DNA of 64,000 bases from an uncultured Prevotella sp. (GTDB taxonomy: Bacteria > Bacteroidota > Bacteroidia > Bacteroidales > Bacteroidaceae). How positions within the stretch are numbered: the first letter of the stretch is position 1; each line of letters begins with the position of its first letter. Below, piece by piece: positions 11,196 through 61,818 of the stretch. A program made the position numbers and the translations under genes. The stretch lies in assembly GCA_946998205.1 (NCBI GenBank), contig CAMPYJ010000001.1, forward strand, positions 56,618 to 120,617, written 5' to 3'. Under the pieces are notes generated by a model. The model ran no database searches, was not told where the DNA came from, and was given only the letters and a program-made list of their open reading frames with translations.

Positions 11196-11204
11196 ATCAA
11201 ACCC

Positions 11205-11239: not shown

Positions 11240-11246
11240 GTTTAAG

Positions 11247-12539
11247 ATGACGTATAAAGAAACGATTGATTATCTCTTTCAAGCCACACCGGTATTTGAA
11301 AACGTTGGAGCCTCAGCCTACAAAGAAGGATTGACGAACACCTTGGCGCTGGATGACCATTTTAAACACCCACACGAACAATACAAGACCATTCATGTAG
11401 CAGGCACCAACGGCAAGGGATCATGCTCGCATACGCTATCGTCGATTCTGCAGGCAGAAGGGTATAAAGTAGGACTTTACACCTCTCCTCACCTCATTGA
11501 CTTCAGGGAACGCATACGCGTCAACGGCAGATGCATCGACCAAGAGCGCGTGATCAGATTCGTTGAACAGGAAAGAAGTTTTTTTGAATCCCTTCACCCC
11601 TCATTCTTTGAACTGACGACAGCGTTGGCGTTTAAATATTTTGCAGAGCAAAAAGTGGATATCGCGGTTATAGAAGTGGGACTGGGAGGCAGGCTCGACT
11701 GCACCAACATCATCACACCCATCCTATCCATCATCACCAACATTAGTATGGACCACACTCAGTTTCTGGGGAACACGCTGCCATTAATCGCAAAAGAAAA
11801 AGCCGGCATCATCAAAGAACACATTCCTGTGGTGGTGGGTGAGACGACGACAGAAACAAAAACCGTGTTTGAAGAAGTTGCAGAACGGCGTGACGCTCCC
11901 ATTATTTTCGCTGAAGATAGCAATGAGATCATCACATCCATGTATGATAACGCCTCGCAAGAAAGAGTATATGACACGCAGTCGTTCGGAGAAATTCACG
12001 GAGACCTGATGGGTAACTATCAAGACAAAAACGCCAACACCGTCTTAAACGCAGTGAAAGTGCTGAAAGACTACGAACTCGTCAAGTTGTCTGACAACAG
12101 CATACGCCAAGGCTTCAAGCAGGTTTCGACAACCACGGGACTGATGGGAAGATGGCAATGCATTCAAAAGTCGCCCGCAACATACTGTGACACGGGACAC
12201 AACGTAGGAGGATGGACTTATCTGAGCCAGCAATTAGCACAACAAGATTGCGAGCAGATGAGAATCGTGTTCGGCATGGTGAATGACAAAGACCTGTCAA
12301 CGGTCATGAAAATGCTGCCGCGAAATGCACGATACTATTGGACACAACCATCATGCCGACGCGCTTTTCCCGTTGAAAAAGTTACACAAATCGGATGCGA
12401 AAACCACCTCAAAGGAGAATCGTTCCACACGGTGAGTGACGCATACCAAGCCGCCATGCATGACGCAGGCATGCGTGATTTCATTTTCATCGGTGGAAGT
12501 AGTTATGTGGTAGCCGATTTATTAACCTTTCTGAAATAA
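11247..12539 (+). CDS. folC: Bifunctional folylpolyglutamate synthase / dihydrofolate synthase.
   Basis: It has the Mur-ligase-type P-loop (AGTNGKGS) and the FolC family layout. Confidence 0.85.
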   Translation: MTYKETIDYLFQATPVFENVGASAYKEGLTNTLALDDHFKHPHEQYKTIHVAGTNGKGSCSHTLSSILQAEGYKVGLYTSPHLIDFRERIRVNGRCIDQERVIRFVEQERSFFESLHPSFFELTTALAFKYFAEQKVDIAVIEVGLGGRLDCTNIITPILSIITNISMDHTQFLGNTLPLIAKEKAGIIKEHIPVVVGETTTETKTVFEEVAERRDAPIIFAEDSNEIITSMYDNASQERVYDTQSFGEIHGDLMGNYQDKNANTVLNAVKVLKDYELVKLSDNSIRQGFKQVSTTTGLMGRWQCIQKSPATYCDTGHNVGGWTYLSQQLAQQDCEQMRIVFGMVNDKDLSTVMKMLPRNARYYWTQPSCRRAFPVEKVTQIGCENHLKGESFHTVSDAYQAAMHDAGMRDFIFIGGSSYVVADLLTFLK

Positions 12540-12655
12540 TGACTTTTTAATAGAATTTAACGCATAAGGGTGATGTTTTTTGGAACATAAGTTTGTCTCA
12601 TTCATTTTTTTTCAGTTACTTTGCACAAACATCAAATAACTAAAAGTTTATTTTT

Positions 12656-13747
12656 ATGACAAACACGACTGAAACAGAAAACCTCTGCGGCTTGAAGCCC
12701 AATGACTTTCAAACCACCATAGACGGAAAAAACACCAATCTTTATATCCTCAAGAATAATGTCGGAAACGAAGTCGCCATCACGAACTATGGTGGTGCCA
12801 TCGTTGCCATCATGATTCCAGACAAAGATGGCAAACTTGCCAACGTCATTCAAGGACACGACAACATTCAAGACGTCATTCATTCGCCAGAGCCATACCT
12901 GTCCACTTTGGTTGGCCGATATGGCAATCGCATCGCAAAAGGTAAATTTCATTTGCACGGAAAGGAATATAACTTGCCCATCAACAATGGTCCCAACTGC
13001 CTTCACGGTGGCATCAAAGGTTTTAACGCCAAAGTTTGGGACGCGCTTCAGATGAACAATCAAACCCTCGTACTTAAATATGTAAGCCCTTACGGCGAAG
13101 AAGGCTTTACAGGAGAATTAAGGACAACCGTTGTATACTCATTCAATGACGACAATGAACTGTCGATAGAATACATGTCGACAACCAACAAAAAAACCGT
13201 CATCAACCTCACCAGTCATGGCTTTTTCTCACTGCAAGGCATCGCGAATCCCACGCCTATAATAGAAAACCAAATCTGTGAAATCAATGCAGATTACTAT
13301 ATTCCTATCGACGACACATCCATTCCAACCGGTGAAATCAGATTTGTGGAGGGAACCCCATTTGACTTCCGCCAGCCAAAGCCCATCGGTCAAGACATCG
13401 AAGCAGACGACACGCAAATTAAAAATGGTTCCGGATATGATCACTGCTTCGTGTTGAACAAGAAAGAAGAAGGCGAACTTAGCTTCGCTGCCAGGCTGAC
13501 TGATCCCAAGAGCGGCCGCACCATGGAAGTGTATACAACGGAACCAGGCGTACAATTGTACACAGACAACTGGGCAGACGGTTACAAAGGACAGCATGGC
13601 GCCACCTTCCCGCGCCGCAGCGCCGTTTGTTTCGAGGCGCAGCATTTCCCCGACTCTCCTAATCATCCTTATTTCCCCTCAGTTGTTCTGAACCCCAACC
13701 AAGAGTACAAACAAAAGACCATTTATAAATTTTACACCCAGAAATAA
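12656..13747 (+). CDS. galM: Aldose 1-epimerase (galactose mutarotase), copy 1.
   Basis: Family motifs are present (GRYGNRIAKGKF, HGG..GF, NHxYFNL-like NLTSHGFFSL). Confidence 0.85.
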   Translation: MTNTTETENLCGLKPNDFQTTIDGKNTNLYILKNNVGNEVAITNYGGAIVAIMIPDKDGKLANVIQGHDNIQDVIHSPEPYLSTLVGRYGNRIAKGKFHLHGKEYNLPINNGPNCLHGGIKGFNAKVWDALQMNNQTLVLKYVSPYGEEGFTGELRTTVVYSFNDDNELSIEYMSTTNKKTVINLTSHGFFSLQGIANPTPIIENQICEINADYYIPIDDTSIPTGEIRFVEGTPFDFRQPKPIGQDIEADDTQIKNGSGYDHCFVLNKKEEGELSFAARLTDPKSGRTMEVYTTEPGVQLYTDNWADGYKGQHGATFPRRSAVCFEAQHFPDSPNHPYFPSVVLNPNQEYKQKTIYKFYTQK

Positions 13748-13797
13748 ACCAAGAAGAAACAACCAAAACAAATAACAAAAAATCTTTCAACTAAAAA

Positions 13798-15081
13798 ATG
13801 GAACAACAGACAAACAAAAACGGCGTCATTGTTGCAATTATCTCAATGATGTTCCTCTTTGCTATGATTTCATTCGTAACTAACCTTGCAGCACCATTTG
13901 GAAACATTTGGGGTAAAACTTACTCATGGGCTGGTATGGTTGGCAACTTAATGAACTTCTTGGCTTATCTTTTCATGGGTATACCGGCCGGCAAGATGCT
14001 CGTGAAGTACGGCTACAAGAAAACAGCCTTGATTGCTATCGCAGTCGGTTTCATCGGCTTGTTCGTACAGTACTTGTCAAGTATGTTTGGTGGCAGCAGT
14101 GAGATGTTCAGCGTTCAGGAACAACCCGTCATGCTCAACTTCATCATCTACTTGCTGGGAGCGTTCATTTGCGGGTTCTGCGTATGTATGTTAAACACGG
14201 TAGTCAACCCCATGTTGAACCTTCTTGGCGGAGGTGGCAACCGTGGAAACCAACTCATCCAAACCGGAGGTACATTAAACTCACTTGCTGCAACACTCAC
14301 CCCGTTCTTTGTTGGGGTGTTGATTGGTCAGGTCACCGACAAGACCAGCATGACAGACGTCACCCCTTTGCTTTGGGTGGCAATGGGCGTTTTCATCGTT
14401 ACCTTCCTTATCATCTCATTCGTAGCCATTCCAGAGCCACAGTCAACCGCCCCTGGCGTTAAATCTGAATATAGTCCATGGAACTTCCGCCACTTCATTC
14501 TCGGCGTGATCGCCATTTTTTTCTATGTGGGGATTGAAGTTGGCATTCCAGCCGAATTGAATTTCTACGTCACGAGACTTGATTTCCCCGGTGCGGCAGC
14601 CGTAGCTGGCGGTATCGTAGCCATCTATTGGTTGTTGATGCTCGTTGGCCGTTTCATCAGCAGTTTCATCAGCGGCAAGGTATCTTCGCGCACACAGATG
14701 CTTTTCACATCATCCCTGGCCATCATCCTTTTACTGATAGCCATCGCACTCCCGGAGAGTTCCGCCGTGTCGTTTCGCGGTTCTGAAGTGCCCATCAAGT
14801 GCTTCTTCATCATTTCATGCGGCATCTGCACATCAATCATGTGGGGCTGCATCTTCAACCTGGCGACAGAAGGCTTGGGCAAATACACGGCCGCAGCGTC
14901 AGGCATCTTTATGATGATGGTCGTTGGTGGCGGCGTGATGCCATTCATCCAAGATCAGATTGCGACCAGCCTCAACAATTACATTGCCAGCTACTGGCTC
15001 GTCATTGCCATGCTCGCATACCTGCTCTACTACGCCCTGGCGGGTTGCAAGAACGTGAACAAAGACATTCCCGTAGAATAA
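13798..15081 (+). CDS. MFS sugar transporter (glucose/galactose GluP/FucP-like).
   Basis: It has about 12 predicted transmembrane helices and lies in the galactose cluster. Confidence 0.75.
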   Translation: MEQQTNKNGVIVAIISMMFLFAMISFVTNLAAPFGNIWGKTYSWAGMVGNLMNFLAYLFMGIPAGKMLVKYGYKKTALIAIAVGFIGLFVQYLSSMFGGSSEMFSVQEQPVMLNFIIYLLGAFICGFCVCMLNTVVNPMLNLLGGGGNRGNQLIQTGGTLNSLAATLTPFFVGVLIGQVTDKTSMTDVTPLLWVAMGVFIVTFLIISFVAIPEPQSTAPGVKSEYSPWNFRHFILGVIAIFFYVGIEVGIPAELNFYVTRLDFPGAAAVAGGIVAIYWLLMLVGRFISSFISGKVSSRTQMLFTSSLAIILLLIAIALPESSAVSFRGSEVPIKCFFIISCGICTSIMWGCIFNLATEGLGKYTAAASGIFMMMVVGGGVMPFIQDQIATSLNNYIASYWLVIAMLAYLLYYALAGCKNVNKDIPVE

Positions 15082-17692: not shown

Positions 17693-18664
17693 TTGTTTTT
17701 GCCGCTGCGTCCGTAGAGCACGCTCGGTGCAACGCCCGCTGTCTGCCAACGCTTGAGCATCAGTTTGACCAACAACCCTACTGCAAAAAGGCCGCATTGA
17801 TGTCGGGAGAAATTGTACCAAAAAGTTACATTGAGGTGGGCATGTAAGGGAAGATGACAGATACGAATTGAAGTAGTCACATCCACATAGGATGCAAAGG
17901 AAATTTAAATGACAAAATTGAAAATATAATTTATGTTATAAAACCTCCCCATACCGACGAGAAAACTTGTGCGGATGAAATACTTTACTACCTTTGCATT
18001 GTGTTTTTCATGGTATTAGATTATTAAGGTTAATGAAGATTGGTTGTCGTGAGACAATCAATTTTTTTTTTTGCATGCCGTAAAGACACCAGCATGTGTT
18101 CGTAACACCTTCAGATGAGACTCAGTGTTTTTAAAGGCAAGGAAGAAAACTACTTGTCCGTTTATTTCAAAATCATCAAGTTACAAAATAGAAAAAGAAC
18201 GAGAGTTGAGGTGCGTTGTCAAACGCCTCTAACCCCCAACAAGACCATCTTTCATGGCGGCTGTACGTTGTTTGAAGCCCTGTTTGCGCCACATTGCCAC
18301 GTTAGAAACAGCATATTGTCTTCCAACGAGCATGACATTGACGCATAAAAGCATGCATATTGGCCGCCAATAAGCATGCTTTTGGCACAAAAATGGATTC
18401 TCCTTTGCAACGAAAAAACGCCTCACAACAGTAACTCATTATGCCATGGTGAAATATGAAAACATCCTATAATTCGCATATTTGCGTTCTACCTTCACGT
18501 TGGTTGCAAATATGCGAGTTTTGAAGCCGCATGTAAAAACATTTCACAGAAGACACGAGCGGATGGCATGGATGACATAATGCGTCATACCCTTGCAACT
18601 CGAAACGCGATCAATCACGCCGCTATGGTTCAAAGTTCTTTTAGGCGACATGGTGTCTACAATC

Positions 18665-27582: not shown

Positions 27583-27587
27583 TAAAA

Positions 27588-27789
27588 GGCTGGTTCTATA
27601 AATTACCACCGCACATAGTCATTAAATGTTTATGAAATACGTTTTGTTATCTTTTGGCTTCTTTTTGGTTCAAAATGTAAGTTCGTTCAGTCGTGTAGCT
27701 CGCTACACTCCTTCACTCTCTTGCATTTTGACCTCAAAAATAAGCTCAAAATCTAACAAAGCTAATTTATAGAACCAGCCAAACCACGA
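27588..27789 (-). mobile_element. MITE-like element, a diverged short copy.
   Basis: The repeats are degenerate (GGCTGGTTCTATAAATTA...TAATTTATAGAACCAGCC). It starts 6 bp after the EamA stop codon. Confidence 0.7.
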
Positions 27790-40843: not shown

Positions 40844-41051
40844 AAGACTTTTCAACACTCTGACAAACAACGTATTAAACGACATTTCGCATCATCCCGT
40901 CATTACAGTAAAGTAACAAACCTGGTTCAATCGCAGTATTCTTCCCCATGATAACTATTCAGCTGAAGAAAAAAAACGTCTTGCCTCCGTCTTCTATTTC
41001 CCACAAGACATCCCCTCGAAAGCCTTTGAAAAAGCAGTATGTTTTCATGTG

Positions 41052-41232: not shown

Positions 41233-41307
41233 TCTTCCGTTAAATGCGTAGACAATTGTCATGTAGAGCGCACAGCTTTAACGTGAAGAACCATAAAATA
41301 GGTATTA

Positions 41308-41559
41308 GGGTGGTTCTATAAATTGCCACCGTAAAGTTTTTTTATGTCAGTCTTTCTTCTTATCTTGTTGACTCTTTTTATATAAAACAGGCTGCGCCTC
41401 AACAAATCAAACAAGTTTGATTGTATTCGGCTTGCTCCGTTTTTGGTTCAATTTGTTTGTTCGTTCAGTCGTATAGCCTGCTATACTCCTTCACTCACAA
41501 ACAAATTGACCAAAAAAAATAGTCGCACAATCTCTCTAAGCTAATCTATAAAGCCGCCC
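41308..41559 (-). mobile_element. MITE-like element, long form, with an ATTA target-site duplication.
   Basis: The repeats are GGGTGGTTCTATAAATTG...TAATCTATAAAGCCGCCC. ATTA occurs on both flanks. Confidence 0.8.
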
Positions 41560-41570
41560 ATTAAAGACTA

Positions 41571-44426
41571 CTATTCTTGATTTGCCAACTTGAACCTAAA
41601 ATGTTCTTTACCGATTTTGACAACTAAGATAACCGGTGCTTCACCTACATTCTCTATTTTCGTCAGGAAACTCCCAGTCCTCAGCTGCTGACCAGTTAAG
41701 GAATATACTGCATAACTGTCATATTTCCCATCTATCACAATATCGCCTTGTTTTAACATGGCCCTGACGGGAGCTTGCTTTACATCGCTGACGCCATCCG
41801 TGCTCATCGCTAAAACCTTTACCATAACAGGTTCGGCGCCTGGTGTCTGTACGAGGAACATGGCGGCACGTGGCTTCGTATCATCACTCTTGAAAATCAA
41901 CGAAACATATCCGCCATCCTTGGGCAGTTTGCTTGGGGTGTACGTGAAGTACCTGTTCATTGACGACGGCACGAGAGTAACGGTGATTGGGTTGACGGCG
42001 TTCTTGGCTTTCACCTCAAATACCTGAGGGGCAGTACGGAGACCAGGCCTAAACAGCAGTTGCATTTTATCTTTACTCACCTGAAGCTCCGGAAGATCCG
42101 TACGGCCGAATGTAACGTTGTCTATCATGAAATTGAGTGACGTTTCGTTACCACCCGTTTTACTGTAGAATGAAAAAGCGATATGGAACTTATCGTCTAT
42201 GTTACGGCTTATGCTGTCTATCTTGGAGAGATCCAAACGATAGTTGTACCAATTTTCTTTTTCTGCAACGACGCCCGCTGGTGAGTAGTCATTGAGATTG
42301 ACAAACTGATCTGTCACCTTACCATCTTTCTCACTGATAATATAAAACCCAAACAGCTCTCCCCCATCTTGAATGGGATTGGCATATCGTAAACTGAACG
42401 TGAGAATCTTACTCTTAGCCTGCTTATAGGAGAGTGTAGGTGACAACAGCCATGATTCGTGCTCGTGCTTGTCTTCTACACCGAATTTAAGAAAACATAT
42501 TTGAGCCACTTCGTTTTCTACGTCAGTTCTTCCCTTGTATTTCTGCTCCCACGCATAGAAAGGTCTCTCACCTCTGAGGGTTAAGTTTTGCCAGTTGGCA
42601 AGTCCTAACACTCGGGTGTGTCTAAGATTTGTGAAATCCTCGTTGAGGAGTGGTAAAGCCTCACTGTCGGCATTTTTCATCATTCCCTCTTGAATGCTGT
42701 TGAACTTCTGCCGGTCTTCTTTCGCATTTTCAAGTATGTCTACCTGGTTTACCAGAATTTCGCCTTGTGAGCTGTTGACAAATCTTATAAACGTAGGACG
42801 ATGTGTGTTTACCTTGAACTCTCCGTTGGCATCAGCTTGTTCCGCAGACATCCAATGGCCACCGCCATCTATCGAATATTCCGCTTTACAATTTTGCGCA
42901 CTGCTTGACGGATGTAGCTTAACGGCAGAAACTCCGTTGGCGAGAATTTCATCAAAATACAGAATACCATTCTTTGCAAGCAGAATGTTTCCTGCTGATT
43001 TCCAACTGCCGTCAAGACGCCAATACCCCTTGTCGAACTTAAAGAAATTTTGCCATGCTGGTTTATCTTTAAAACGATTGTCCATAGGTCGTTCAGCTTT
43101 AAAGGTTTCAGTGAGCATGCTGTTGTTGTTTTCTGCACAAACTCCTTTCAGCTCTATTTTCACCGTGTCTGACAACGGTGTAGAAACTAAAAGCGTGGCC
43201 GTATATACACCAGCAGCCTTAGGTTGAAAACTTACCTTCACCTTATTATTATAGAGCTTATCTGTTCTTGAACCATAGTAAAACTGTGTAGTATTAAGGC
43301 GGAAAGCCCCATTGGGCTTTTGATGCAGAGCAAGCGCCACATTTGTGAAGACGTTTTTTATATCAAACTCTACCTGCTGCTCATCAGTTTTGTTTACGTC
43401 AGCTTTCATTTCTCTCACCTTAACGCCTTCTTTTAGGGAGATACTTGGTTTCTTGCCTGCCGCCATAAAGTATCCCATCACGGTGAAAGAACCGGAATTC
43501 TCTTGATCTGCACCATATACCTTTAAAGCATAAGAACTACTTCCTACAAAGACTCCTTTCTTTGCTGGCGTAACAGCCAACTTGGTAAGTACCGACCCAT
43601 CCTTTTCCAACTTGGACACTCCCAGTTTAAGAACGCTTTCCGCATTGCTGCCATGATAGGATATTGTTGGCAGGTTAGAAAGATGCGACGTTTGTATTGC
43701 CACATCATATTCTTTGGTAACTCCTACCTCGCCCATAACAGTTTTGAATTGAGGAAGGATGGCAACAAGAGGAGTGCGATCCTTTGCAGACAAGCGTAAC
43801 AAGCTGAAGTCGTCAAAGCGCACGCTGCTGTTTGGGGCTATTTCAATGAAGAAGTCTAACTTATCCGCATTTTTAGGACATGTCAGTCGGAATTTTAATG
43901 TACCATAAGTTTTTAGTCTGCCAAAATACACTTGACTGTTGTTGATGAACTTTTCATCCTTGCAGGGCAATTCCCTGCCAGCACCATCCAACCAGCGAAA
44001 AGCAAGGCGCAGCGGCCCTCTTTGATCCTTGCTCTCTACGGTGCAATAGTTCAAGAGACACTCCAACTCGTCACCAAACGACACATCTTTAGACTTAAGG
44101 TTAATCGTTTGTCGCAAAAAACCCTTCTCTTCGTTGGTAGATATACCAAGGGCAAACCCCGTGTCACTACTAAAACGGCCATTCTCATCAATTTTTGTGA
44201 GTTTACCTTTTGTCTCCCAGTTAGCTGGCATGTCTCCGTTAAAAGTGTCAAAGAACTGATTGTCAAGTAGCTCCTTGGTTGGCTTGTCGTTTTCACTGAG
44301 TTTCGATATAGAGTGTTTGATACTAAAATCTGACAATTGAGCATTCATTGTCATAGATTTAAAAAAACATAACAAAACTAATGTTAACGCATGTCGCCGG
44401 TCGAAAGATCTGTGATTCATTTTCAT
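41571..44426 (-). CDS. Large secreted protein of unknown function (951 aa) with a probable T9SS C-terminal domain.
   Basis: It has a signal peptide (…FFKSMTMNAQ). The C-terminus is ...AVYSLTGQQLRTG...ILVVKIGKEHFRFKLANQE. Confidence 0.5.
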   Translation of the reverse strand: MKMNHRSFDRRHALTLVLLCFFKSMTMNAQLSDFSIKHSISKLSENDKPTKELLDNQFFDTFNGDMPANWETKGKLTKIDENGRFSSDTGFALGISTNEEKGFLRQTINLKSKDVSFGDELECLLNYCTVESKDQRGPLRLAFRWLDGAGRELPCKDEKFINNSQVYFGRLKTYGTLKFRLTCPKNADKLDFFIEIAPNSSVRFDDFSLLRLSAKDRTPLVAILPQFKTVMGEVGVTKEYDVAIQTSHLSNLPTISYHGSNAESVLKLGVSKLEKDGSVLTKLAVTPAKKGVFVGSSSYALKVYGADQENSGSFTVMGYFMAAGKKPSISLKEGVKVREMKADVNKTDEQQVEFDIKNVFTNVALALHQKPNGAFRLNTTQFYYGSRTDKLYNNKVKVSFQPKAAGVYTATLLVSTPLSDTVKIELKGVCAENNNSMLTETFKAERPMDNRFKDKPAWQNFFKFDKGYWRLDGSWKSAGNILLAKNGILYFDEILANGVSAVKLHPSSSAQNCKAEYSIDGGGHWMSAEQADANGEFKVNTHRPTFIRFVNSSQGEILVNQVDILENAKEDRQKFNSIQEGMMKNADSEALPLLNEDFTNLRHTRVLGLANWQNLTLRGERPFYAWEQKYKGRTDVENEVAQICFLKFGVEDKHEHESWLLSPTLSYKQAKSKILTFSLRYANPIQDGGELFGFYIISEKDGKVTDQFVNLNDYSPAGVVAEKENWYNYRLDLSKIDSISRNIDDKFHIAFSFYSKTGGNETSLNFMIDNVTFGRTDLPELQVSKDKMQLLFRPGLRTAPQVFEVKAKNAVNPITVTLVPSSMNRYFTYTPSKLPKDGGYVSLIFKSDDTKPRAAMFLVQTPGAEPVMVKVLAMSTDGVSDVKQAPVRAMLKQGDIVIDGKYDSYAVYSLTGQQLRTGSFLTKIENVGEAPVILVVKIGKEHFRFKLANQE

Positions 44427-44780
44427 CGTTTTTATTATTTACTATTTATAACTTAAATTCCTTGTTCACATAACGAAATACAAAATATAACACATTATTT
44501 TATATGATATATCTGTAAATAATATCAATTTCCTTAAAGAATAATATTTTTGCAAAGATATGATTTTTTACATTAGTAGCACTATTAAATGTTACTATTT
44601 AACAAAAACATATAAAATAAAAACATATATTAACATACAGTTATAACAATAGGGTGAAGATTCAAAATCGAAATGCAAAATTTGTTGGTGTTTGGATTGC
44701 ATTAAAACCATGAAAAACACCGCGGAGGTTTGCCATGCGGCCGGGGGTGCGAAGCCCCCGAAGAGCACAATCAGCAATAC

Positions 44781-44812
44781 AAAAAAAAACAAAAGGGAGA
44801 CCGCAGTCTCCC
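44781..44812 (-). terminator. Intrinsic terminator on the minus strand (GGGAGAC-cgca-GTCTCCC followed by a T-run).
   Basis: It is a perfect 7-bp GC-rich stem with a 4-nt loop. On the minus strand it is followed by CTTTTGTTTTTTTTT. It lies downstream of LRR gene 45150..47690, beyond the intervening MITE. Confidence 0.6.
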
Positions 44813-44825
44813 AAAGATTAATTAA

Positions 44826-45083
44826 GGGCGGTTCTATAAATTACCGCCGTAAAGTTTTTTGTATGTTGGACAGTTTACGTTTTGTCATCTTGCGGTCTCT
44901 TTTTATATAAAACAGGCTGCGCCTCAACAATTCAAACAAGTTTGATTGTATTCGGCTTGCTCCGTTTTTGGTTCAATTTGTTTGTTCGTTCAGTCGTATA
45001 GCCCGCTATACTCCTTCACTCACAAACAAATTGACCACAAAAACAGTCTCACAATCTGTCAAAGCTAATTTATAAAACCGCCC
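44826..45083 (-). mobile_element. MITE-like element, long form.
   Basis: Both repeats are intact. No clear target-site duplication is visible. Spurious ORF 44692..44910 overlaps it. Confidence 0.85.
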
Positions 45084-45124
45084 ATATGTCCAAAAGTTGC
45101 ATTTCTTAATTGAACTTACGACTT

Positions 45125-45141
45125 AATTTATAGAACACCCC
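45125..45141. repeat. Solo terminal-repeat fragment of the MITE (TAATTTATAGAACACCCC).
   Basis: An isolated repeat-like 17-mer lies about 40 bp beyond a full copy. Confidence 0.4.
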
Positions 45142-45149
45142 TTATTTTA

Positions 45150-47690
45150 TTACCTTATTTCTTTTCTGGTTTCTTCAGTGCCGTCAGCATACTTTGTCTT
45201 AATGATGTTTATTCCCTTGTGTGGCACATTTATTTTCATACCGTATTGGTTATAACACACTTTAGATACTATTACCTTGCCATTGTGAGTTTCTTGTATA
45301 CCCGCAGTATCCGAACCTTTGTAAACCGTCATATTTGCTGGGTTTCCATTAAGATTATATACCTGCCAATTCCTCTCGTGCGCTAAATTTACCTGTGCCT
45401 TTGTGCAATCATTTTTTTCAGCACCTAATGTTGTGTCAACAATGATAAGCATTCCTGTTGAACGACCTTTTCTGTCAGGAAGACTATTAATCATGTTTGT
45501 CATATTTTCCCCCTTGATATTATTGCCGTAACAATTTACATAGCTCAAGTCTTTGCAAGCAGAAAAATCAATCATTTCAAATTGGTTGATTTCCCCACTA
45601 AATGTTTGCAATGCTTGGTTTTTGCTTAAATCAATTTCGCTTATTTGATTCAATCCACACATCAACTCCGTCAGTTTAAGTTCGTGGGTAACATCAATGT
45701 GTGAAAGTTGTGCATAAAGAGCTTGCAGTTTTATCAATTCCGTGTATATTGTAGCAGTATTCTCTATCAGGTTTAGGGTTAAGCTTTTTCCGTTCCAGCC
45801 AGACAACGCAGCCCCCTCAATGAATGGTGCAGTAGCAGGAGTAGTCGTTTCAATAGAAATCATCGCAAACCCCTTTTCCGGGCGAGATATTTTGAAATAA
45901 GCATCACCTTTCCTTATTTGTTCAAACCTTGCAGTGATTTTTGTAGTCTCTTTTATTATAGCAGTTTTGGTCGCTGTAATATCAGTTTCGTTTGCTTTCA
46001 ATTCGGTCAATTCATATCCATTTTCAGGTATGACGTTGAACGTTAATTCTGTTCCGTATATCACTTTTGTCAAATCAACACCATTGCCTACGGTAATCTT
46101 ACCATTTTTTGCAGCTTCGATAGTTACCGTCAAATAGGTAGGATCAGAACCGTCATAGTTTATTCCCATACCATACATACCCCCATTGATATAGTCTTTT
46201 ATAGTCCAAGACTTATCATTTGCCATAACAACATCGCTCTTTAGTGCAACATTTTTTTCCGTTCCAGCTGGTGCTTGTGTGTCAATAATGTAAAGAAGCG
46301 GCTTTTTTGACTTGCCATCATACAAAGAATTTACCATTGCCGTCATCTTACTTCCTATGAGTGCGTTTCTGTAGCAATTTACTCTATACAATCCGCTTGA
46401 ACCTGTCAAGTCGAGTGTTTCCAATTTATTTTGTTGGCAATGCAATTGCAAAAGTGCGCTATGATTTTTTAAAATGAGAGTTTTTATCTCATTGTTAGAG
46501 CAATCTAAATAAGTTATAGGGCTTCCTTCGTCTGAAGAAAATTGAGTAATGTTATTTCCACTACAGGTTAACTCTCCCACGTCACCCTTGATAGTTATGT
46601 TTTGTTTGGTAAGCGTCAGCGTTTGTTTTCCAGAATAAGGCGCACTTTCGGCTACACCGTCAATTAAGATTTCAGCATCACCAACAGCCTTAATTTCTAA
46701 CCTTATTTTTTCACCAATTTGTTTTGTTGTTGTGAAGACAATATTATGCTTACTAACTTCTGGTACATAGTCTATCCCATTAAAAGTTCCTCCTATCATA
46801 CTGCCATTATCTGTTCCATCCAGCCAGTCGCACATAATCCAACCTTTTGCCTTAGCTGCTTCAACATCCTTCACATAACACTTGTTACCTTCGTTTTTAT
46901 TGCGTGTGTTCACGACATACAACATCGGAGGGCCCTGTGTTGGGCGTGGCAATTTTTTGATAAAGTCATCCATGCCTTGTCCTTCTATTTTATTGCTGTA
47001 AACCTTTATCCACCACAAAGAGGTATTTTTGCTCAAATCCAATGTTGTAAGCAGATTTTGTTCCGCATACAAGTCAGCCAATGCCGTACAATTGCTTATG
47101 TCAAGTCTCGCTAATCGATTATTGCCGCATTCCAATCGTTTCAACGCCTTATTGGCACTTCCAGTTGTAAGCGTTGTTAATTTATTGTGACAGACAACCA
47201 ATTTTTCTAAGTTCTCATTCATGCTAACGTCCAACGCTGACAAATTATTATCATGGCAATCTAAAGTGTTCAAGGTAATACATTTGTTAATTTCCAAATC
47301 GCTTAATTTATTCTCATAACATTTTAAGATTTGAAGTTTCGGAGCATCAGCAACAAGTTCTGTCAATTGGCATTTGTAGCATTCCAATTGTGTCAAATTG
47401 CCTGAAATAACAATTTCTTTTGTAGGGTCTACAACTTCATATTCACCATAGAAATCGTTCTTTTTTACGCCACCAGAAATGTTAGCCTCATTAAAAGGTT
47501 GGGTATAAATGCGTAGCTTTGTGCCAACGGGCGCTTCCGTTTTCATTTTAATAGTTGCTTGACGTTGCGCCCAAACTTTGTTTGGCAGCATGACACATAG
47601 CACATTCATAACCAGTAGCAATATCAGCTTTAGCTTGCTACAATCTTGTTTTTGCGTTTTACTAATGTAGTTTACGAATGAATGTTTCAT
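45150..47690 (-). CDS. Leucine-rich-repeat surface protein (BspA-like) with two LRR blocks.
   Basis: It has a signal peptide and repeated LxxLxCxxNxLxxLD units (…LQILKCYENKLSDLEINKCITLNTLDCHDNNLSALDVS…; the second block is …LLQLHCQQNKLETLDLTG…). The C-terminal stretch may be a T9SS CTD. Confidence 0.7.
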   Translation of the reverse strand: MKHSFVNYISKTQKQDCSKLKLILLLVMNVLCVMLPNKVWAQRQATIKMKTEAPVGTKLRIYTQPFNEANISGGVKKNDFYGEYEVVDPTKEIVISGNLTQLECYKCQLTELVADAPKLQILKCYENKLSDLEINKCITLNTLDCHDNNLSALDVSMNENLEKLVVCHNKLTTLTTGSANKALKRLECGNNRLARLDISNCTALADLYAEQNLLTTLDLSKNTSLWWIKVYSNKIEGQGMDDFIKKLPRPTQGPPMLYVVNTRNKNEGNKCYVKDVEAAKAKGWIMCDWLDGTDNGSMIGGTFNGIDYVPEVSKHNIVFTTTKQIGEKIRLEIKAVGDAEILIDGVAESAPYSGKQTLTLTKQNITIKGDVGELTCSGNNITQFSSDEGSPITYLDCSNNEIKTLILKNHSALLQLHCQQNKLETLDLTGSSGLYRVNCYRNALIGSKMTAMVNSLYDGKSKKPLLYIIDTQAPAGTEKNVALKSDVVMANDKSWTIKDYINGGMYGMGINYDGSDPTYLTVTIEAAKNGKITVGNGVDLTKVIYGTELTFNVIPENGYELTELKANETDITATKTAIIKETTKITARFEQIRKGDAYFKISRPEKGFAMISIETTTPATAPFIEGAALSGWNGKSLTLNLIENTATIYTELIKLQALYAQLSHIDVTHELKLTELMCGLNQISEIDLSKNQALQTFSGEINQFEMIDFSACKDLSYVNCYGNNIKGENMTNMINSLPDRKGRSTGMLIIVDTTLGAEKNDCTKAQVNLAHERNWQVYNLNGNPANMTVYKGSDTAGIQETHNGKVIVSKVCYNQYGMKINVPHKGINIIKTKYADGTEETRKEIR

Positions 47691-47764
47691 ACATATTTGG
47701 TTAAAAAATTGATAATATAAGTACGTTGTTGTTTTGCTTATTTAAAATAGAATTAATCTATATA

Positions 47765-48021
47765 GGGCGGTTCTATCAATCAGCTTTGACAGTTTGTGGG
47801 ACTATTTTTGAGGTCAATTTGTTTGTGAGTGAAGGAGTATAGCGAGCTATACGGCTGAACGAACAAGCAAATTGAACCAAAAACGGAGCAAGCCGAATAC
47901 AATCAAACTTGTTTGAATTGTTGAGGCGCAGCCTGTTTTATATAAAAAGAGTCCACAAGATGACAAAACGTAAAAACACTGACATAAAAGAACTTTACGG
48001 TGGTAATTTATAGAACCGCCC
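47765..48021 (+). mobile_element. MITE-like element, long form.
   Basis: It has the inverted repeats (one repeat carries point changes: GGGCGGTTCTATCAATCA). Spurious ORF 47847..48029 overlaps it. Confidence 0.85.
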
Positions 48022-48187
48022 TTATACAATCTTCAAATGAGCCTGTCTTCTTATCACCACCCTGCCCGATGTAACATTTTTACGGGCAAAGGTAGTGAAT
48101 AAAGAATACCGAACAATGGCGGTTAACGTTGGATGCTTACGATACGCAACATTCAACACCTCACAACATTTTAAATCCTTGTGAATC

Positions 48188-50302
48188 TTATTGTACCACA
48201 AACTTAAAAACACCATTATTGTTTGTTTTTACAATGTAAACACCCGGTATCAAATGCAACGTTGCACAACCCTTGTTCTTTACGCTCAATGTATCCACTT
48301 GTTTCCCTTGAATGTCATAGACATTTACAATAGCGTCTTTGTTGGCACTTAGAGTTATTAGATTACCATTTTGCCATAGTTTTATAGGTCTTTTATTTTC
48401 ATTTACATAGCTAATAGATGAAGCTGCCGCTTTCATGGTGACAGGTCTCGTTCTATATTCCTTACCTGCTATTGACAAATCAGGGAAAGCATCTGTTTGC
48501 ATGCTGCAATACATCTCCGTCTCTTCTGTCAATTTAAAAGTAAATTTACCATCTACTTCTTCATAATATAACCCTTTCACGACAGGTAGTCCAGCGACAT
48601 TCTTATTCAACCATATATAAGTTGTAGGTTGAGGGGCGTTAGTAACACCTTTCAAATGATTAAACGCAGAAAGGTCTACGACATTTCCCCTTATCAATTC
48701 GGGAGTTATAAAATAAGGACGTTGTGGAGCATAAAGATAATTTTCCATATTACGCTTTTCAGGCAACATGTACATTGGTATGGCATTATGTCCACATCTC
48801 ATCTCTTTCAACAGACTATAATCGGCTGGCAATTTTAAGTCATTAATTTGATTAAAGGCTATATTCACTCTTTCCAACTTATTCATTTTCGTTAAATTAA
48901 CAGCTGTAAGTTTGTTGCGTTCAATATTTAAATCTGTCAAATTGACGTAATCAGAAAGATTCAAAGCATTAATTTGATTACCAGCAAGCGAAAGTTTTAT
49001 TATCGTTTTAGTTTTCGGCAGTATTATTTCGCTTGCATAGCAACCATTAGCTGATAATTCTATTGCGTTTTTAAACAACGAAAAATCAACAGATTGCAAT
49101 CGGTTATTATCTAAAATTATACGTTTTGCAGGACTTTCAACCGTACCTTCATTAAAGCCACAGAATCCACTAAGCTCTGGAAATTTGAGCAAGTCTAAAT
49201 CCTTGCATTGTATTTGAACCAAATGCTTTTTATCAAATTCAGCATCAAGGAAATTGTGCTTCACGATGGTTTCTGATTTATTCAAAGTAATTTCTTGAAT
49301 AACTCCATCGCCCCAATTTATTAAACATGGACTATTATCCGTTGTGCTTGAAAGCGTTAAATCGAAAGTTAATTTTTCTGTCGTAAACTTATCTGTTGTA
49401 AATGCCGCATGAACAGCATCCAATCCTTTGGACTTTCCCGCTAATTTAATCGGCATAATACCATAACGGTCATTAATATTGTGCAGCTTTGGTAAAGCAG
49501 GGTTGTCTACAACACAATAAATTTCACAATCATAAGCTTCATTAAAAGTAAAGATTCCATCTTCTTCCTTATAAGTACTTGGATCTATGAGCATTGCTGG
49601 GTCGGCATTGTTGCCACGATTATTATAACGATACCATGAAAATTTAGAAATTGTACCTTTATATGATAAAAAGTCAGAAAGGTCAACAGTCATTCCTTTT
49701 ATTTTATTTTTCTCCAAATATACAGGACGCATCGGACCGTATGTATAGACAAAAGTCTTCTTTTCCGGAAATTCTGCTAAGGTGAGCCTATTCCTATCAA
49801 ACACAAAATTTCTTGTAGTTGGCGGCAATTTTAAGTCTTCTATCTCATTTGCATTACAAACAACATTTTCTAACTTTGGACAACCGGTAAGGTCTAATTT
49901 TTTAAGGGAACTCCATGCACATGAAAATTTTAGTAACTCCTTACAGTCAGTAAGTGTAATTTCAGATACTTTTCTATTGCTTATGATCGTAAACTCAATG
50001 AAAGGGCCACCCCAAACCTTAACTTTATGAATTTTGTTGACAGCCATGTCTGCAAAGTTATAGGACAGCAAATCAGCGTTACCATACGATATTTTCTCAT
50101 GAGTTCCTGTTCCATCACCATAATCTATATAATATTTTGTACCTGACTTGGCTTTAATTTTCATTGAAAATTGTTCTGTTGATGTTGATTTCGTTTCATA
50201 CGATGTCGTGAAATTAATTTCATCAGCATAAATTACCGTACCTATTCCCAACAGCGGAATCATAATTAATAAACTCAAAAAGTGATGTACTTTTTTCTTC
50301 AT
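48188..50302 (-). CDS. Leucine-rich-repeat surface protein with a T9SS C-terminal domain.
   Basis: It has LRR units (…NLSDYVNLTDLNIERNKLTAVNLTKMNKLERVNIAFNQINDLKL…). The C-terminus is ...NVYDIQGKQVD...IPGVYIVKTNNNGVFKFVVQ. The start is moved to the internal Met (MKKKVHHFLSLLIMIPLLGIG) that begins a signal peptide. Confidence 0.7.
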   Translation of the reverse strand: MKKKVHHFLSLLIMIPLLGIGTVIYADEINFTTSYETKSTSTEQFSMKIKAKSGTKYYIDYGDGTGTHEKISYGNADLLSYNFADMAVNKIHKVKVWGGPFIEFTIISNRKVSEITLTDCKELLKFSCAWSSLKKLDLTGCPKLENVVCNANEIEDLKLPPTTRNFVFDRNRLTLAEFPEKKTFVYTYGPMRPVYLEKNKIKGMTVDLSDFLSYKGTISKFSWYRYNNRGNNADPAMLIDPSTYKEEDGIFTFNEAYDCEIYCVVDNPALPKLHNINDRYGIMPIKLAGKSKGLDAVHAAFTTDKFTTEKLTFDLTLSSTTDNSPCLINWGDGVIQEITLNKSETIVKHNFLDAEFDKKHLVQIQCKDLDLLKFPELSGFCGFNEGTVESPAKRIILDNNRLQSVDFSLFKNAIELSANGCYASEIILPKTKTIIKLSLAGNQINALNLSDYVNLTDLNIERNKLTAVNLTKMNKLERVNIAFNQINDLKLPADYSLLKEMRCGHNAIPMYMLPEKRNMENYLYAPQRPYFITPELIRGNVVDLSAFNHLKGVTNAPQPTTYIWLNKNVAGLPVVKGLYYEEVDGKFTFKLTEETEMYCSMQTDAFPDLSIAGKEYRTRPVTMKAAASSISYVNENKRPIKLWQNGNLITLSANKDAIVNVYDIQGKQVDTLSVKNKGCATLHLIPGVYIVKTNNNGVFKFVVQ

Positions 50303-50777
50303 TACACATTTCAGTTTGTTAATAATATTTGTAATATTGCGCAAAATTAATACTATTTTGTAATAAAACAGAAAACAATAGTATTTATTTGACAAAAAAA
50401 AACACAAATATTGATTCAAGATAGAAGTACAAGGCCTGCGGGTATCTTGATATACTTAAAACCATGAGAGAGACTGCGGGGTCGCCTTTCGGTTGGGATG
50501 CTTAACCCCAAAGAGCATAACCGCCCATACAAATACAGAAAAGGGAGACACCGCGGGCTCAGCAAAGATAATTTGCCCTGTACTGTGAAACATCATCAAG
50601 CAACCGCAAGTAAAAGTTCGCAAATTTTAGTTCCGCCGATAAAGCAACTTCTTTATTTAAAATTAGATACGCCCTTACGACCATCTTACTTTTCAATCTC
50701 CATGCTTTTGCCCTCCAATCTGCATGCTATTGCACGGCAAAAGCATGCGTTTATGCGGCTAAAAGCATTGCTTTCAG

Positions 50778-50887
50778 TGCGGTTCTATAAATTAGCTTTG
50801 ACAGATTGCGAGATTGTTTTTTAGGCCGATTTGTTTGTAAGTGAAGGAGCATAGCGAGCTATACGACTGGACGAACAAGAAAATTAA
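50778..50887 (+). mobile_element. Truncated MITE: the first about 110 bp only, abutting a full inverted copy.
   Basis: It has the left repeat and internal sequence as far as ...ACAAGAAAATTAA, then breaks exactly where the next copy begins. Confidence 0.7.
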
Positions 50888-51083
50888 GTGCGGTTCTATA
50901 AATTACCATCGTAAAGTTCTTGTTCGGCAGTCTTTTTACGTTTTGTCATCTTGTTGACTCTTTTTGGTTCAATTTGCTTGTTCGTTCAGTCGTATAGCTC
51001 GCTATACTTCTTCACTCACTAACAAATTGACCTCAAAAAAAAATAGTCTCACAATCTGTCAAAGCTAATTTATAGAACCGCCC
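50888..51083 (-). mobile_element. MITE-like element, short form, arranged head-to-head with the truncated copy.
   Basis: The repeats are GTGCGGTTCTATAAATTA...TAATTTATAGAACCGCCC. Confidence 0.8.
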
Positions 51084-51323
51084 TTTATCGAGAAAGGTAA
51101 GGATTAAGAGAGGCGCGCCCTTCGCCGAGGAGACGCTGGCGTTGAAGCAAAAAAACATCGTTTCCCTGTTTCAACCACGAATGAGCGAATTTGGCAACGG
51201 CACGCGGTTGCGTTCAACCACGCCACCCGTCACTCAACGTTCAACGCCGCCGCCTTTCAATGAAGGAACCGCGTGCTTGTTTTTGACGACAATCAACTTT
51301 TTGAGACGGAAAAACCGCGGCAA

Positions 51324-53648
51324 TCATTCGTAAACATCGTCGATACCAAACCCACCTTCGTCTTGATCATCCTTGGCGCACGGATTGTACCCCTCAGGAA
51401 GTCCAAAAGAGGCGTCGGTTTTATATCCTAACGAAGCATCTTTATAAACTCTCTTCATGAAGTTGGCCCATATCGGCAAAGCCATGGTTGCCCCCTGCCC
51501 CATCCTCATGGAGTCGAAATGGATGTCACGGTCTTCACCGCCTACCCAGCACCCGCTCACCAGTTGTGGCGTGAACCCCATGAACCATGCGTCAGAATTT
51601 CGGTTCGTAGTACCCGTCTTCGCCCCAATCTCTCCTTCCATGTCGTACTTGAAGCGCAACCGGCTTGCCGTTCCTCTGTCAACGACTTCCTGGAGGAGCA
51701 CCAGCATCTTGTTGGCGCTCTCTGCGCTGATCACCTCGCTCATGCGGGGTTGGAAGGTTGCCAGCACGTTTCCCTCGTTATCTTCTATTTTAGAAACAAA
51801 CATCGGAGCGGTACGGATGCCGTGGTTGGCAAAGGCGGTGTATGCGCTGACCATTTCGCCAACCGAAACCTCGCAAGGCCCCAGGCAAAGCGCCATGGAG
51901 GGATGGATGTCTGGATTCCGGATGCCGAAGTCGTGAAGCATACTCACAAACAGCTGTGGGTTCAAGCGGCTCATCAGGTATGCCGAAATCCAATTGTTCG
52001 AGTTTGCCAAGCCCCACTTCAGCGTCACCATCGATCCGTATCGCCTTCTGTTTGCGTTTCTTGGCGTCCAAGGCCTACCCGCCACCATATACGTTCTCTG
52101 CACGTTGGGCGCCTGGTCGCAGGGCGAGAAGCCGTTCTCCATGGCCAAGGCATACAGAAAGGGCTTGATGGTAGACCCCACTTGCCGGCGTCCGGCCATC
52201 ACCATGTCATACATGAAGTGGTTGTAGTCAAGACCACCCACATACGCCTTCACTTGCCCCGTCTGCGGATCCATGCTCATGAAGCCTGCCCGAAGGAACG
52301 ACTTGTAATAACGGATGGAATCCATGGGTGTCATTATCGTATCCACGTCACCATGATAGGTAAACACCGACATGTCGACAGGCGTGTTGAACGACTTCTT
52401 TATTTCCGCGTCAGTGGCTCCCGCGGCCTTCAACACCCTATAACGCTCGCTTGCCATCATGGAGCGGTTCAATATCGACCTTATCTCTTTCGGTGTCAGA
52501 GCGTTGGTGAAGGGTGCGTTGGGGCATTTCGCCTTCTCTTTGTCAAATGCCGGTTGCAGAAACTTAGCCACATGGTTGTAAACGGCTTGTTCGGCATACA
52601 GCTGCATGCGCGAGTCGATGGTGGTGAACACCTTCAGGCCATCTGTGTAGACATTATAGGGCTTGCCGTTTTTCTTCAAATTCTTATTGCACCACCCATA
52701 AAGAGGGTCGGTTGCCCAAGCGATGGAGTCATAGACGAATTGACTCTGGTTCCATGAAGGATAATCGGAACGACGCGGATGAGAGGCCATCATGTATTGG
52801 CGAAGGAATTCTCGAAAATAGGTGGCCAATCCGTTTTTGTGATCCGTGCAATGAAAGTTCAGTTTCAGCTTCTCATCGGCATACCTGTGACATTCGGCTT
52901 TTGAAAGATATCCAGCCTTCTGCATTTGCCCAAGCACTACATTGCGTCGTTCGGTACATCGTTCGGGATAACGAATGGGATTATAAAGAGACGGATTCTT
53001 GCAAAGGCCGATGAGCATGGCCGACTCTGTGACCGTCAAGTCTTTGGGTTCTTTATTAAAATAGGTGTTCGCAGCAGTCTTGATGCCTACCGCGTTGTGG
53101 AGAAAATCAAAATAGTTAAGGTATAATGCGATGATTTCCTCCTTGGTGTAGTTGCGTTCCAACTTAACGGCGATGACCCATTCGATGGGTTTTTGCAGCA
53201 TTCGCTCCAACGTGCTCCGCGCCGTTTCTGAATAGAGCTGTTTAGCCAATTGCTGCGTGATGGTAGACCCCCCCCCTGCGTTCTCTCTTCCCAGAATCCC
53301 ACGTTTGACGATGGCGCGTCCCAATGCGAAAAAGTCGATTCCCGAATGTTCATAAAACCGCTCATCCTCGGTTGCCACCAAAGCGTGAACCAAATGTGGT
53401 GAAATTTTTGAATAAGGTATGACGATGCGGTTCTCCTTGTTAAAGTTCCAGGTTCCCAGCACCTTGCCATCTGCCGAATAGACCTGGGTCGCGAAACGAC
53501 TGATGGGGTTCTGAAGGTCTTCTACATCAGGCATGTAGCCTATCCACCCGTTCCATATCGCGACAAACGCGACCAGGACGGCACAAAATACCGCGGCCAA
53601 AGTTTTCCAAAGGAAATGAACAAATGCCTTTCTCATTCTCTGCGACAC
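51324..53648 (-). CDS. mrcA: Class A penicillin-binding protein (PBP1A), a bifunctional transglycosylase and transpeptidase.
   Basis: It has an N-terminal transmembrane anchor. The GT51 motifs are ATEDERFYEHSGID and GGSTITQQL. The transpeptidase motifs are STIKP, SNN and KTGT. Confidence 0.9.
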   Translation of the reverse strand: MSQRMRKAFVHFLWKTLAAVFCAVLVAFVAIWNGWIGYMPDVEDLQNPISRFATQVYSADGKVLGTWNFNKENRIVIPYSKISPHLVHALVATEDERFYEHSGIDFFALGRAIVKRGILGRENAGGGSTITQQLAKQLYSETARSTLERMLQKPIEWVIAVKLERNYTKEEIIALYLNYFDFLHNAVGIKTAANTYFNKEPKDLTVTESAMLIGLCKNPSLYNPIRYPERCTERRNVVLGQMQKAGYLSKAECHRYADEKLKLNFHCTDHKNGLATYFREFLRQYMMASHPRRSDYPSWNQSQFVYDSIAWATDPLYGWCNKNLKKNGKPYNVYTDGLKVFTTIDSRMQLYAEQAVYNHVAKFLQPAFDKEKAKCPNAPFTNALTPKEIRSILNRSMMASERYRVLKAAGATDAEIKKSFNTPVDMSVFTYHGDVDTIMTPMDSIRYYKSFLRAGFMSMDPQTGQVKAYVGGLDYNHFMYDMVMAGRRQVGSTIKPFLYALAMENGFSPCDQAPNVQRTYMVAGRPWTPRNANRRRYGSMVTLKWGLANSNNWISAYLMSRLNPQLFVSMLHDFGIRNPDIHPSMALCLGPCEVSVGEMVSAYTAFANHGIRTAPMFVSKIEDNEGNVLATFQPRMSEVISAESANKMLVLLQEVVDRGTASRLRFKYDMEGEIGAKTGTTNRNSDAWFMGFTPQLVSGCWVGGEDRDIHFDSMRMGQGATMALPIWANFMKRVYKDASLGYKTDASFGLPEGYNPCAKDDQDEGGFGIDDVYE

Positions 53649-61198: not shown

Positions 61199-61299
61199 CT
61201 TGGTATAAACGAATAAAAGTAAATTTTATTACGTTTTTAGCGTAAAACCCCACGGTGACGCAAAACGTAAGTTCAATTAAACTTACGCTGGCTGAGATT

Positions 61300-61636: not shown

Positions 61637-61818
61637 GTTTTCAATTGCATAGACTTTGAACGTCAAAGGCGTGTGAATTGAACGCCAATGCCAATGACTT
61701 TGGAAACCAATGTCATTGGCATTGGCTCGCAAGGTGGATGCGCCCGCTCGCCTGCCGAGCGGTTTGCTCAAACTATGTGTCAGCAAACATGGCAAGATGT
61801 CGCACACCTGAAAAAACG
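61637..61818. repeat. Repeat B, copy 2.
   Basis: It matches 41052..41232. It contains a perfect 14-bp inverted repeat (CCAATGCCAATGAC / GTCATTGGCATTGG) and a second hairpin (CCGCTCG-cctgc-CGAGCGG). Confidence 0.6.

Follow-up and report, generated by a model that had tools for sequence, protein, structure and literature searches.

A 64-kb stretch of DNA from an uncultured Prevotella sp. (contig CAMPYJ010000001.1 of assembly GCA_946998205.1, forward-strand positions 56,618 to 120,617), referred to here as the window, carries a block of three consecutive minus-strand genes encoding large secreted proteins: P951 (41571..44426), LRR1 (45150..47690) and LRR2 (48188..50302), the last two with leucine-rich repeats (LRRs). 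Beyond LRR2 lies the gene of PBP1a (51324..53648, minus strand), a transglycosylase and transpeptidase that forms a conserved core flank of the block. A preliminary description of this region had reported the three open reading frames (ORFs) and a MITE (miniature inverted-repeat transposable element) at each of the four junctions, and both were confirmed, the latter by matches to the terminal inverted repeat (TIR) at 41308, 44826, 47765, 50777 and 50888. In this study, about 25 metagenome contigs of the same species, chosen by an identical aspartate carbamoyltransferase (L081-L089) or by P951 orthologues (L090-L103), were mapped onto the window, and loci of related species were compared as well. 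LRR1, LRR2 and the MITE between them were found to be one low-GC cassette that is either carried or replaced among strains. The junction elements, comprising MITE copies and a second, IS30-derived element termed E200, mark the module borders at base-pair resolution.

The host belongs to the Prevotella/Hoylesella group, its PBP1a being 94% identical in amino acids to that of Prevotella sp. BV3P1 and four species known from metagenome-assembled genomes and 86% identical to that of Hoylesella timonensis. P951 is a secreted protein of 951 aa whose C-terminal domain is divergent and which also contains a choice-of-anchor J domain. It had been labelled a cargo protein of the type IX secretion system (T9SS), and LRR2 had been given a T9SS C-terminal domain (CTD). 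The label of LRR2 holds (TIGR04183, 25.5 bits against a cut-off of 23), but no CTD model (TIGR04183 or PF18962) scored above threshold in P951, with a weak match in 1 of 12 family members. NCBI labels a homologue at 52% identity "T9SS type A sorting domain-containing", and P951 is probably a T9SS cargo protein. LRR1 (846 aa) is a secreted protein with internalin-like LRRs and a Flg_new_2 (InlB-B-repeat-like) domain, for which the model search found no T9SS tail. LRR2 (704 aa from its ATG, in an ORF that is open to 50419) combines LRRs with a T9SS type A sorting domain. Signal peptides were judged by eye to be present in all three proteins. Exact-protein look-ups returned no match for GT2, P951 and UvrA, and one contig of only 2.7 kb for LRR1.

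The MITE copies at the junctions differ in form and in the state of their target-site duplications (TSDs). MITE A (41308-41559, plus strand) is a long-form copy 11 nt downstream of the P951 stop codon with its TSD, ATTA, intact on both sides (41304-41307 and 41560-41563). MITE B (44826-45083, plus strand), also of the long form, is nested within E200 between LRR1 and P951, and MITE C (47765-48021, minus strand) is a third long copy, inverted relative to B and found in every haplotype that has the LRR cassette. A TSD is retained by MITE A and five other copies in the window and is lacking in B (flanks TTAA / ATAT) and C (TATA / TTAT). On the PBP1a side, MITE D (50777-50887, minus strand) is partial: of the PBP1a-side MITE it retains the 107-111 nt nearest to the cassette, and its outer terminus forms the right edge of the cassette exchange. 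MITE E (50888-51083, plus strand) is a short-form copy in the opposite orientation which replaces the remainder of D, either after a nested insertion followed by deletion or as a recombinant. The right flank of E, TTTA (51084-51087), corresponds to the TSD in strains with a single full-length copy at this place. A solo TIR remnant (45124..45141, plus strand; 16/18 match), likewise absent from the preliminary description, is separated by 8 nt from the stop codon of LRR1. A core of 13 nt from it follows the LRR1 stop in all versions of the gene, among them the L089 haplotype and a composite transposon described below, with the orientation in the window flipped. At the MITE A locus, other strains have the short form, without 41380-41439, and the two forms alternate among strains at the same locus both here and at the PBP-side MITE (L082 7133-7325).

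The MITE family as a whole was defined by its 18-nt TIR, GGGCGGTTCTATAAATTA, which has 25 matches in the window with at most three mismatches, against 0.02 expected. Alignment of 12 copies together with BLAST gave a long form of about 258 bp (252-258) and a short form of about 195 bp that lacks an internal 60 bp, both with inverted termini and a long central hairpin (DNA fold z = -6.1). The 60-bp difference is bounded by TTTTT repeats. Coding capacity is absent, the overlapping ORFs being spurious and of at most 32 aa. Comparison of filled and empty sites established a 4-bp TSD: TAAA at 40910-40913, a site without an insertion in the window and occupied in L090, L092 and L095-97, and TCAA from a comparison within L090; ATTA flanks the copy at 55270. 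Insertions are polymorphic at 40910-40913 and near 61900, where L081 and L084 have an extra copy, and the copy at 55270 is absent from the sister species (87% nucleotide identity). The family is present in 1 of the 80 related-species loci. It is thus a real and mobile family that is still transposing in the population. The 4-bp TSD and GG termini are suggestive of the IS5 family of insertion sequences (ISs). Two candidate partners, the IS1380-family IS of L093 and the IS701-like IS of L232, were rejected, since their ends are unrelated. In Rfam no family was found for the element and only spurious plant miRNA matches to its hairpin were obtained, and the TIR sequence was not found in the searched literature. 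Among viral contigs two partial matches only were found. The IMG/VR viral or prophage contig L106 (UViG_2600255111_000002) has a shortened MITE-like copy at 1621-1796 and, 7.2 kb from it on the same strand, a lone TIR at 9006-9052.

The second element, E200, consists of a left part (44655..44825, minus strand) and a right end (45084..45120, minus strand), on either side of MITE B. The segment 45085-45120 recurs over 31-39 nt at 92-100% identity in about ten unrelated metagenome contigs, whose sequences are unrelated outside this terminus and related inside it. A 31-nt stretch of it (45090-45120) is 100% identical to the terminal inverted repeat (IR) of IS30-family ISs, and the ORF inside the matching elements encodes an IS30 transposase with HTH_38 and rve domains (NF033563, 250 bits against a cut-off of 80). 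The lead to IS30 came from a metagenome scan with the right-end 15-mer CGTAAGTTCAATTAA, most matches of which were due to chance, and from the re-screening of those matches. The left end of E200, at 44655-44658, is a strain breakpoint and agrees with the other IR of that IS at 19 of 28 positions (BLAST, 85.7% over 21 nt), a weak match in the correct place; an imperfect internal IR of 24 nt (75%) lies near the segment ends. A target duplication of 2-3 bp was not found, the flanks being GGG / ACT in the window or TAA in L081, which is compatible with later rearrangement at the ends. Judging from these termini, we conclude that 44655-44825 and 45084-45120 are a miniature IS30-family derivative of about 200 bp with MITE B nested inside, and we infer that E200 has been active in this host. 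An old, diverged copy, E200' (50413..50573, minus strand; 68% identity), lies upstream of LRR2.

A minus-strand terminator had been placed at 44781..44812, together with the proposal that LRR1 transcripts read through MITE B. A terminator-like hairpin with a T-run is indeed present (44812-44795), but it belongs to E200, which the preliminary description had missed. Because no other terminator motif was found on the minus strand from 45150 to 44812, transcript read-through of MITE B is plausible. An instance of the Bacteroidetes -7 promoter motif TAnnTTTG, TAGCTTTG, lies in the MITE's right end and reads into the element (45060-45067, 50793-50800, 51060-51067 and most other copies); should this motif be functional, transcription from MITE B would run into the E200 terminator. 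Two candidate regulatory features were set aside: a FopS-like small RNA at 44702-44714 (GTGTTTTTCATGG), with no FopS match in the region even at E<=5, and an invertible promoter, the likely -7 motif of P951 (44560-44553) lying outside the segment that is inverted in one strain.

The locus is not invariant, and three well-supported haplotypes were distinguished. In H1 (the window, L085 and L088) the order is P951, E200 with MITE B, LRR1, MITE C, LRR2, MITE D/E and PBP1a. In H2 (L089/90, and L084 with L093) the LRR cassette is as in H1 at 96.6% identity and a segment of about 4 kb containing a decayed IS1380-family IS replaces 44658-45138; L089 and L090 are one 24-kb contig that reaches from PBP1a to Rho. 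In H3 (L081, L082/83, L086 with L091, and L087) P951 and E200 with MITE B are followed by a DUF4595 gene, two DUF262/GmrSD_N genes, a MITE and PBP1a. LRR1 and LRR2 are thus present together in L084, L085, L088 and L089/90 and replaced in L081-83, L086, L087 and L091. One of the DUF262 proteins of H3 matches the PADLOC models HEC-06 and Orf5, and the replacement cassette is, by its domain content, defence-like and not a surface antigen. GC content is 36% in the LRR cassette, 39% in the DUF4595/DUF262 cassette, 43% in P951 and 51% in the flanking PBP1a and UvrA genes. The main variants were each seen more than once, across independent samples and assemblers: five samples have the GmrSD cassette, at least four the LRR cassette, and five contigs the breakpoint at 44657. 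LRR1 was never separated from LRR2 in the strains compared, and P951 was retained in every haplotype seen. The idea that three surface antigens are shuffled individually is not supported by this comparison: P951 is fixed, the LRR genes are not split at MITE C, and the alternative cassette is defence-like.

Further details of these haplotypes were recorded. The H2 insert, 4 kb between P951 and LRR1 (L090, reverse-complemented, 10043-14049), contains an IS1380-family IS that is internally deleted there and intact in L093, as well as a duplication of about 830 bp, one copy of which is split by a MITE. Nextera adapter sequence is present at the end of L093. In L088, positions 1-1062 hold a shufflon-like pair of genes, one for a tyrosine integrase and the other the hsdS of a type I restriction system, directly next to the left terminus of MITE B in the place of P951; this arrangement could be genuine or a chimeric product of assembly. 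In L091 the polymorphic MITE at 40910 borders on a GlnRS context. At the left end of the defence-like cassette (L081 892-1000), a palindrome, AACTTACGTAAGCT, is followed by reiterated AAGCT..GAGCTTTT motifs, and a similar motif, CGTAAGCTTT, follows the stop codon of an LRR1 homologue (76% identity) in L227.

On the PBP1a side, the edge of the cassette exchange falls at a MITE. In an alignment of seven strains, homology of H2 and H3 begins exactly at the outer terminus of the full-length PBP1a-side copy, and no cryptic homology was found between the right ends of the two cassettes. This copy is a mosaic. Between L081 and L084 it has 12 differences in 110 positions on the cassette side and 4 in 147 on the PBP side (11% against 2.7% divergence), and the next flank has 12 in 1000 (Fisher p = 0.009 and 5e-7). 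The half on the cassette side is specific to the haplotype: H1, H2 and H3 are as diverged from one another there as unlinked copies are (87-89% identity), against 98-100% identity within a haplotype. Such a mosaic is the trace that a crossover inside the repeat would be expected to leave, and the copy is read as a product of repeated recombination, conversion or nesting. The evidence for homologous recombination inside a MITE is restricted to this one junction.

On the P951 side, the edges fall at E200. The exchange has its left edge at 45120, at a distance of 37 nt beyond MITE B, and this position is the outermost base of the 31-nt IS30-family IR; the breakpoint of H2 at 44657/44658, found in L090, L092, L093, L094 and L098, is the other E200 terminus. 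In L082/83 the whole segment 44657-45120 is inverted, so that 45120 is an edge of this inversion as well; the inverted orientation is known from one assembly only, deposited twice, and the window contains no recombinase gene for it. The left-side breakpoints are thus the two E200 termini and not MITE ends, contrary to what had been proposed for this junction, and the second element type supplies half of the breakpoints. The cassette of the window was also considered as a composite transposon; this was rejected, since it lies outside the termini of the flanking elements and has no common duplication. In the part of the window from 31.5 to 64 kb, by our own count, a MITE is present at all four junctions that vary among strains, and the eight junctions without one are all invariant (one-sided Fisher 0.026).

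LRR1 alone is a smaller self-contained module, which has moved as a composite transposon in another lineage. Homologues at 89% and 76% amino-acid identity were found elsewhere, neither of them near LRR2, P951 or PBP1a. The former, complete in contigs L232-L234, is enclosed by a direct pair of IS701/IS4-like IS copies of 1420 bp each, and the whole is flanked by a 6-bp duplication, GTCTTA. Its homology to the window extends from 47753 to 45146, that is, the gene with 63 nt upstream and 4 nt downstream, and the boundary at 47753 is 12 nt from the terminus of MITE C. The 76% homologue is in a different context; a MITE copy close to it shares 98% identity with the one at 27585-27783 in the window.

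A second variable region lies beside rpsP and is marked by a 22-bp palindrome of two IS30-type termini at 61266-61287 (CGTAAGTTCAA/TTAAACTTACG), which is perfect in L081 and L084. The 15-mer of the E200 right end recurs once more in the window at this place, at 61266, and the collinearity of L082/83 and L086/87 with the window breaks off exactly at 61265/61266. The palindrome is followed, after 36 nt, by a MITE that has no TSD. In the sister species synteny is limited to pyrB-PBP1a, and homology stops at the PBP1a stop codon. The gene content 3' of PBP1a depends on the species: L003 has a peptidase C10 and RNase G there, H. timonensis has rpsP with an epimerase gene. In the latter (L006 12504-14298) these two genes are directly downstream of PBP1a, and in the window rpsP is 10 kb off, beyond the breakpoint at 61266, which suggests an old rearrangement between two transposon-marked junctions. 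About 180 nt in the spacer downstream of P951 (41051-41229) are 78% identical to 61637-61815, within a 123-aa ORF near rpsP, and may represent a decayed gene fragment or a low-copy repeat linking the two variable regions. At 18001-18071 (plus strand), in a 1-kb spacer after galactose-utilisation genes, a full-length match to the Bacteroidetes small RNA family FopS (RF04319) scored 72.7 bits against a gathering score of 56.

The following account would connect these observations. Two non-autonomous elements, the lineage-amplified MITE of 195/260 bp and the IS30-family derivative of about 200 bp, have colonised the spacers of a low-GC accessory island, the exchanges of which most likely occur by recombination that ends in or at copies of the elements. 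The mosaic MITE on the PBP1a side would be the product of homologous recombination between distinct MITE copies, or of gene conversion between them; on the P951 side, breakage and joining at IS30-type ends would have led to end-directed deletion, inversion and insertion; and ordinary recombination between strains would then spread the resulting alleles. IS30 ends are described as generating deletions, inversions and insertions and as targeting inverted repeats (PMC9333248). The elements and their mobility, the alternation of the cassettes and the agreement of breakpoints with element termini to the base pair are shown by the data; that the elements caused the breaks, and which enzyme acted, we infer, and for the account as a whole we see an even chance of being right. 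The core idea of the preliminary description, namely that junction repeats accompany gain and loss of a cassette, passes the strain comparison that it had proposed as a check, and its interpretation as a whole is partly supported. In its favour are the right edge at a mosaic MITE, the missing TSDs of MITEs B and C and the LRR1 module that ends 12 nt from MITE C; its extension to the P951 side, where the breakpoints are E200 termini, is not supported.

Several findings weigh against this account. MITEs are common throughout the window, with about 12 loci in 64 kb, or roughly one copy per 5 kb, in 11 of the 33 spacers counted, and several of these spacers separate housekeeping genes (pyrI-glyA, UvrD-M20, near rpsP). 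Some coincidence of breakpoints with copies is therefore to be expected, and because of this density the occupancy of every junction of the block is unremarkable by itself; by permutation over the 33 spacers, a run of at least four occupied junctions has P = 0.18-0.31. Neither MITE C nor the copy at 55270 was ever a breakpoint within the species. The TTTA beside the PBP-side MITE is common to both cassette states, which a simple crossover between two MITEs would not predict, and gene conversion was rejected for the long/short difference at MITE A, where there is no excess of substitutions. No transposase gene is present in the window, and neither there nor in the fetched loci was an autonomous partner found whose TIRs match. 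In addition, the strain data are short-read metagenome assemblies, which can break and mis-join at repeats like the MITE and E200, and the variants of L088, L091 and L082/83 are weak because each is known from a single assembly.

In a rival explanation, the elements are passive markers. MITE and IS remnants would then accumulate in the few long, AT-rich, neutral spacers where the borders of an island must also lie, and the alleles of this hotspot of integration and replacement would be exchanged through homologous recombination within the core genes on either side (PBP1a, and the P951/UvrA side) or by an unrelated recombinase. Besides the density of the MITE, the unremarkable run of four and the copies that are not breakpoints, this explanation draws on the P951-E200 segment, which is 99.7% identical to L081 against 96.6% to L090 and points to ordinary recombination between strains, on the variation of synteny downstream of PBP1a even between species without this MITE, and on the tyrosine integrase beside MITE B in L088. 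Against it, breakpoints coincide to the base pair with at least four independent termini (44657, 45120, 50777 and 61266) in spacers of 0.7-1 kb, where they were free to fall anywhere; the mosaic of the PBP-side MITE and the TSDs lost by MITEs B and C are also not accounted for. We consider passive marking possible but rather improbable. An artefactual origin of the variants, by chimeric joins and breaks that short-read assemblers introduce at repeats of 200-260 bp, would fit the fact that most contigs of the species end inside MITE A, B or D and that the P951 cluster consists mostly of contigs of 3.2-3.4 kb, as well as the adapter sequence on one contig end and the variants with one assembly each; in P. 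gingivalis, two thirds of assembly gaps lie at IS or MITE copies (PMC5771137). The main variants nevertheless recur across independent samples and assemblers, both junctions of each cassette are unique sequence, the 24-kb contig L089/L090 spans PBP1a to Rho, and the copies differ by 5-12%, so that most are resolvable. Artefact is thus very improbable as the general explanation.

It is also conceivable that transposases supplied in trans acted on the element ends throughout, by adjacent deletions or inversions, one-ended events and IS30-type IR-IR junctions, with no homologous recombination between MITEs. Breakpoints exactly at termini and not inside elements, a segment inverted in place between IS30-type IRs, the palindrome of two such termini at another breakpoint, the nesting of MITE E in D or its replacement of part of D, and the composite transposon that carries LRR1 elsewhere would all agree with such a mechanism, as would the properties of IS30 (PMC9333248). 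The changeover within the central hairpin of the PBP-side MITE is, however, better explained by crossover or gene conversion, neither the window nor the conspecific contigs yielded an IS30-family or MITE-cognate transposase gene, and E200 has no TSD; we regard exclusive transposase action as unlikely. In a more far-reaching reading, the MITE and the IS30-type miniature would form a working exchange system, their ends and the central hairpin of the MITE serving as preferred recombination or transposase sites, that swaps adhesin-like LRR modules against anti-phage defence modules at fixed chromosomal docking points, and an invertible 466-bp segment upstream of P951 would flip the terminator and gate read-through into P951. 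This reading is speculative and decidedly unlikely.

Accessory modules bounded by ISs or MITEs and composite transposons are already well known; in composite transposons and in MITE-flanked mobilisation units, such as integron mobilisation units, a passenger gene has a copy of a transposable element on each side. The LRR1 homologue of L232-L234, with two direct IS copies and a 6-bp duplication, is a textbook case of a composite transposon, unlike the cassette of the window, which lies outside the flanking termini and has no common duplication. With members of the IS30 family, E200 shares the identical 31-nt terminus and variants by deletion, replacement and inversion that end exactly at both termini, but it differs in being a non-coding element of about 200 bp that harbours a MITE, lacks a TSD and has no cognate transposase in its vicinity. 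The alternation of unrelated low-GC cassettes between conserved genes, one of them defence-like (DUF262/GmrSD_N; HEC-06/Orf5), resembles defence islands and accessory hotspots, from which the locus differs in that the alternative is a pair of LRR surface proteins and that the borders are at transposon ends and not at tRNA genes or integrase att sites. Closest among known MITEs are those of Porphyromonas gingivalis, another member of the Bacteroidota, which are likewise short, non-coding, intergenic repeats with TIRs, show plasticity from strain to strain and break short-read assemblies. The present family has another sequence, is amplified in one Prevotella/Hoylesella lineage and is nearly absent from the 80 related-species loci. 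The MITEs of P. gingivalis (BrickBuilt and others) and its ISs have been associated with genome rearrangement and assembly breaks (PMC4596501, PMC5771137). What is new here is an undescribed, lineage-amplified MITE family, a nested IS30-derived miniature and the association of both with LRR/T9SS surface-protein modules in one species of Prevotella/Hoylesella.

The results add an example to the known role of ISs and MITEs in genome plasticity and are not a new principle. These loci are systematically fragmented in short-read assemblies, and the junctions defined here can be followed up with long reads. Surface proteins with LRRs and T9SS domains are candidate adhesins and antigens, and genes of this kind in transposon-bounded modules that are gained, lost or swapped for defence genes provide a concrete route for surface variation.

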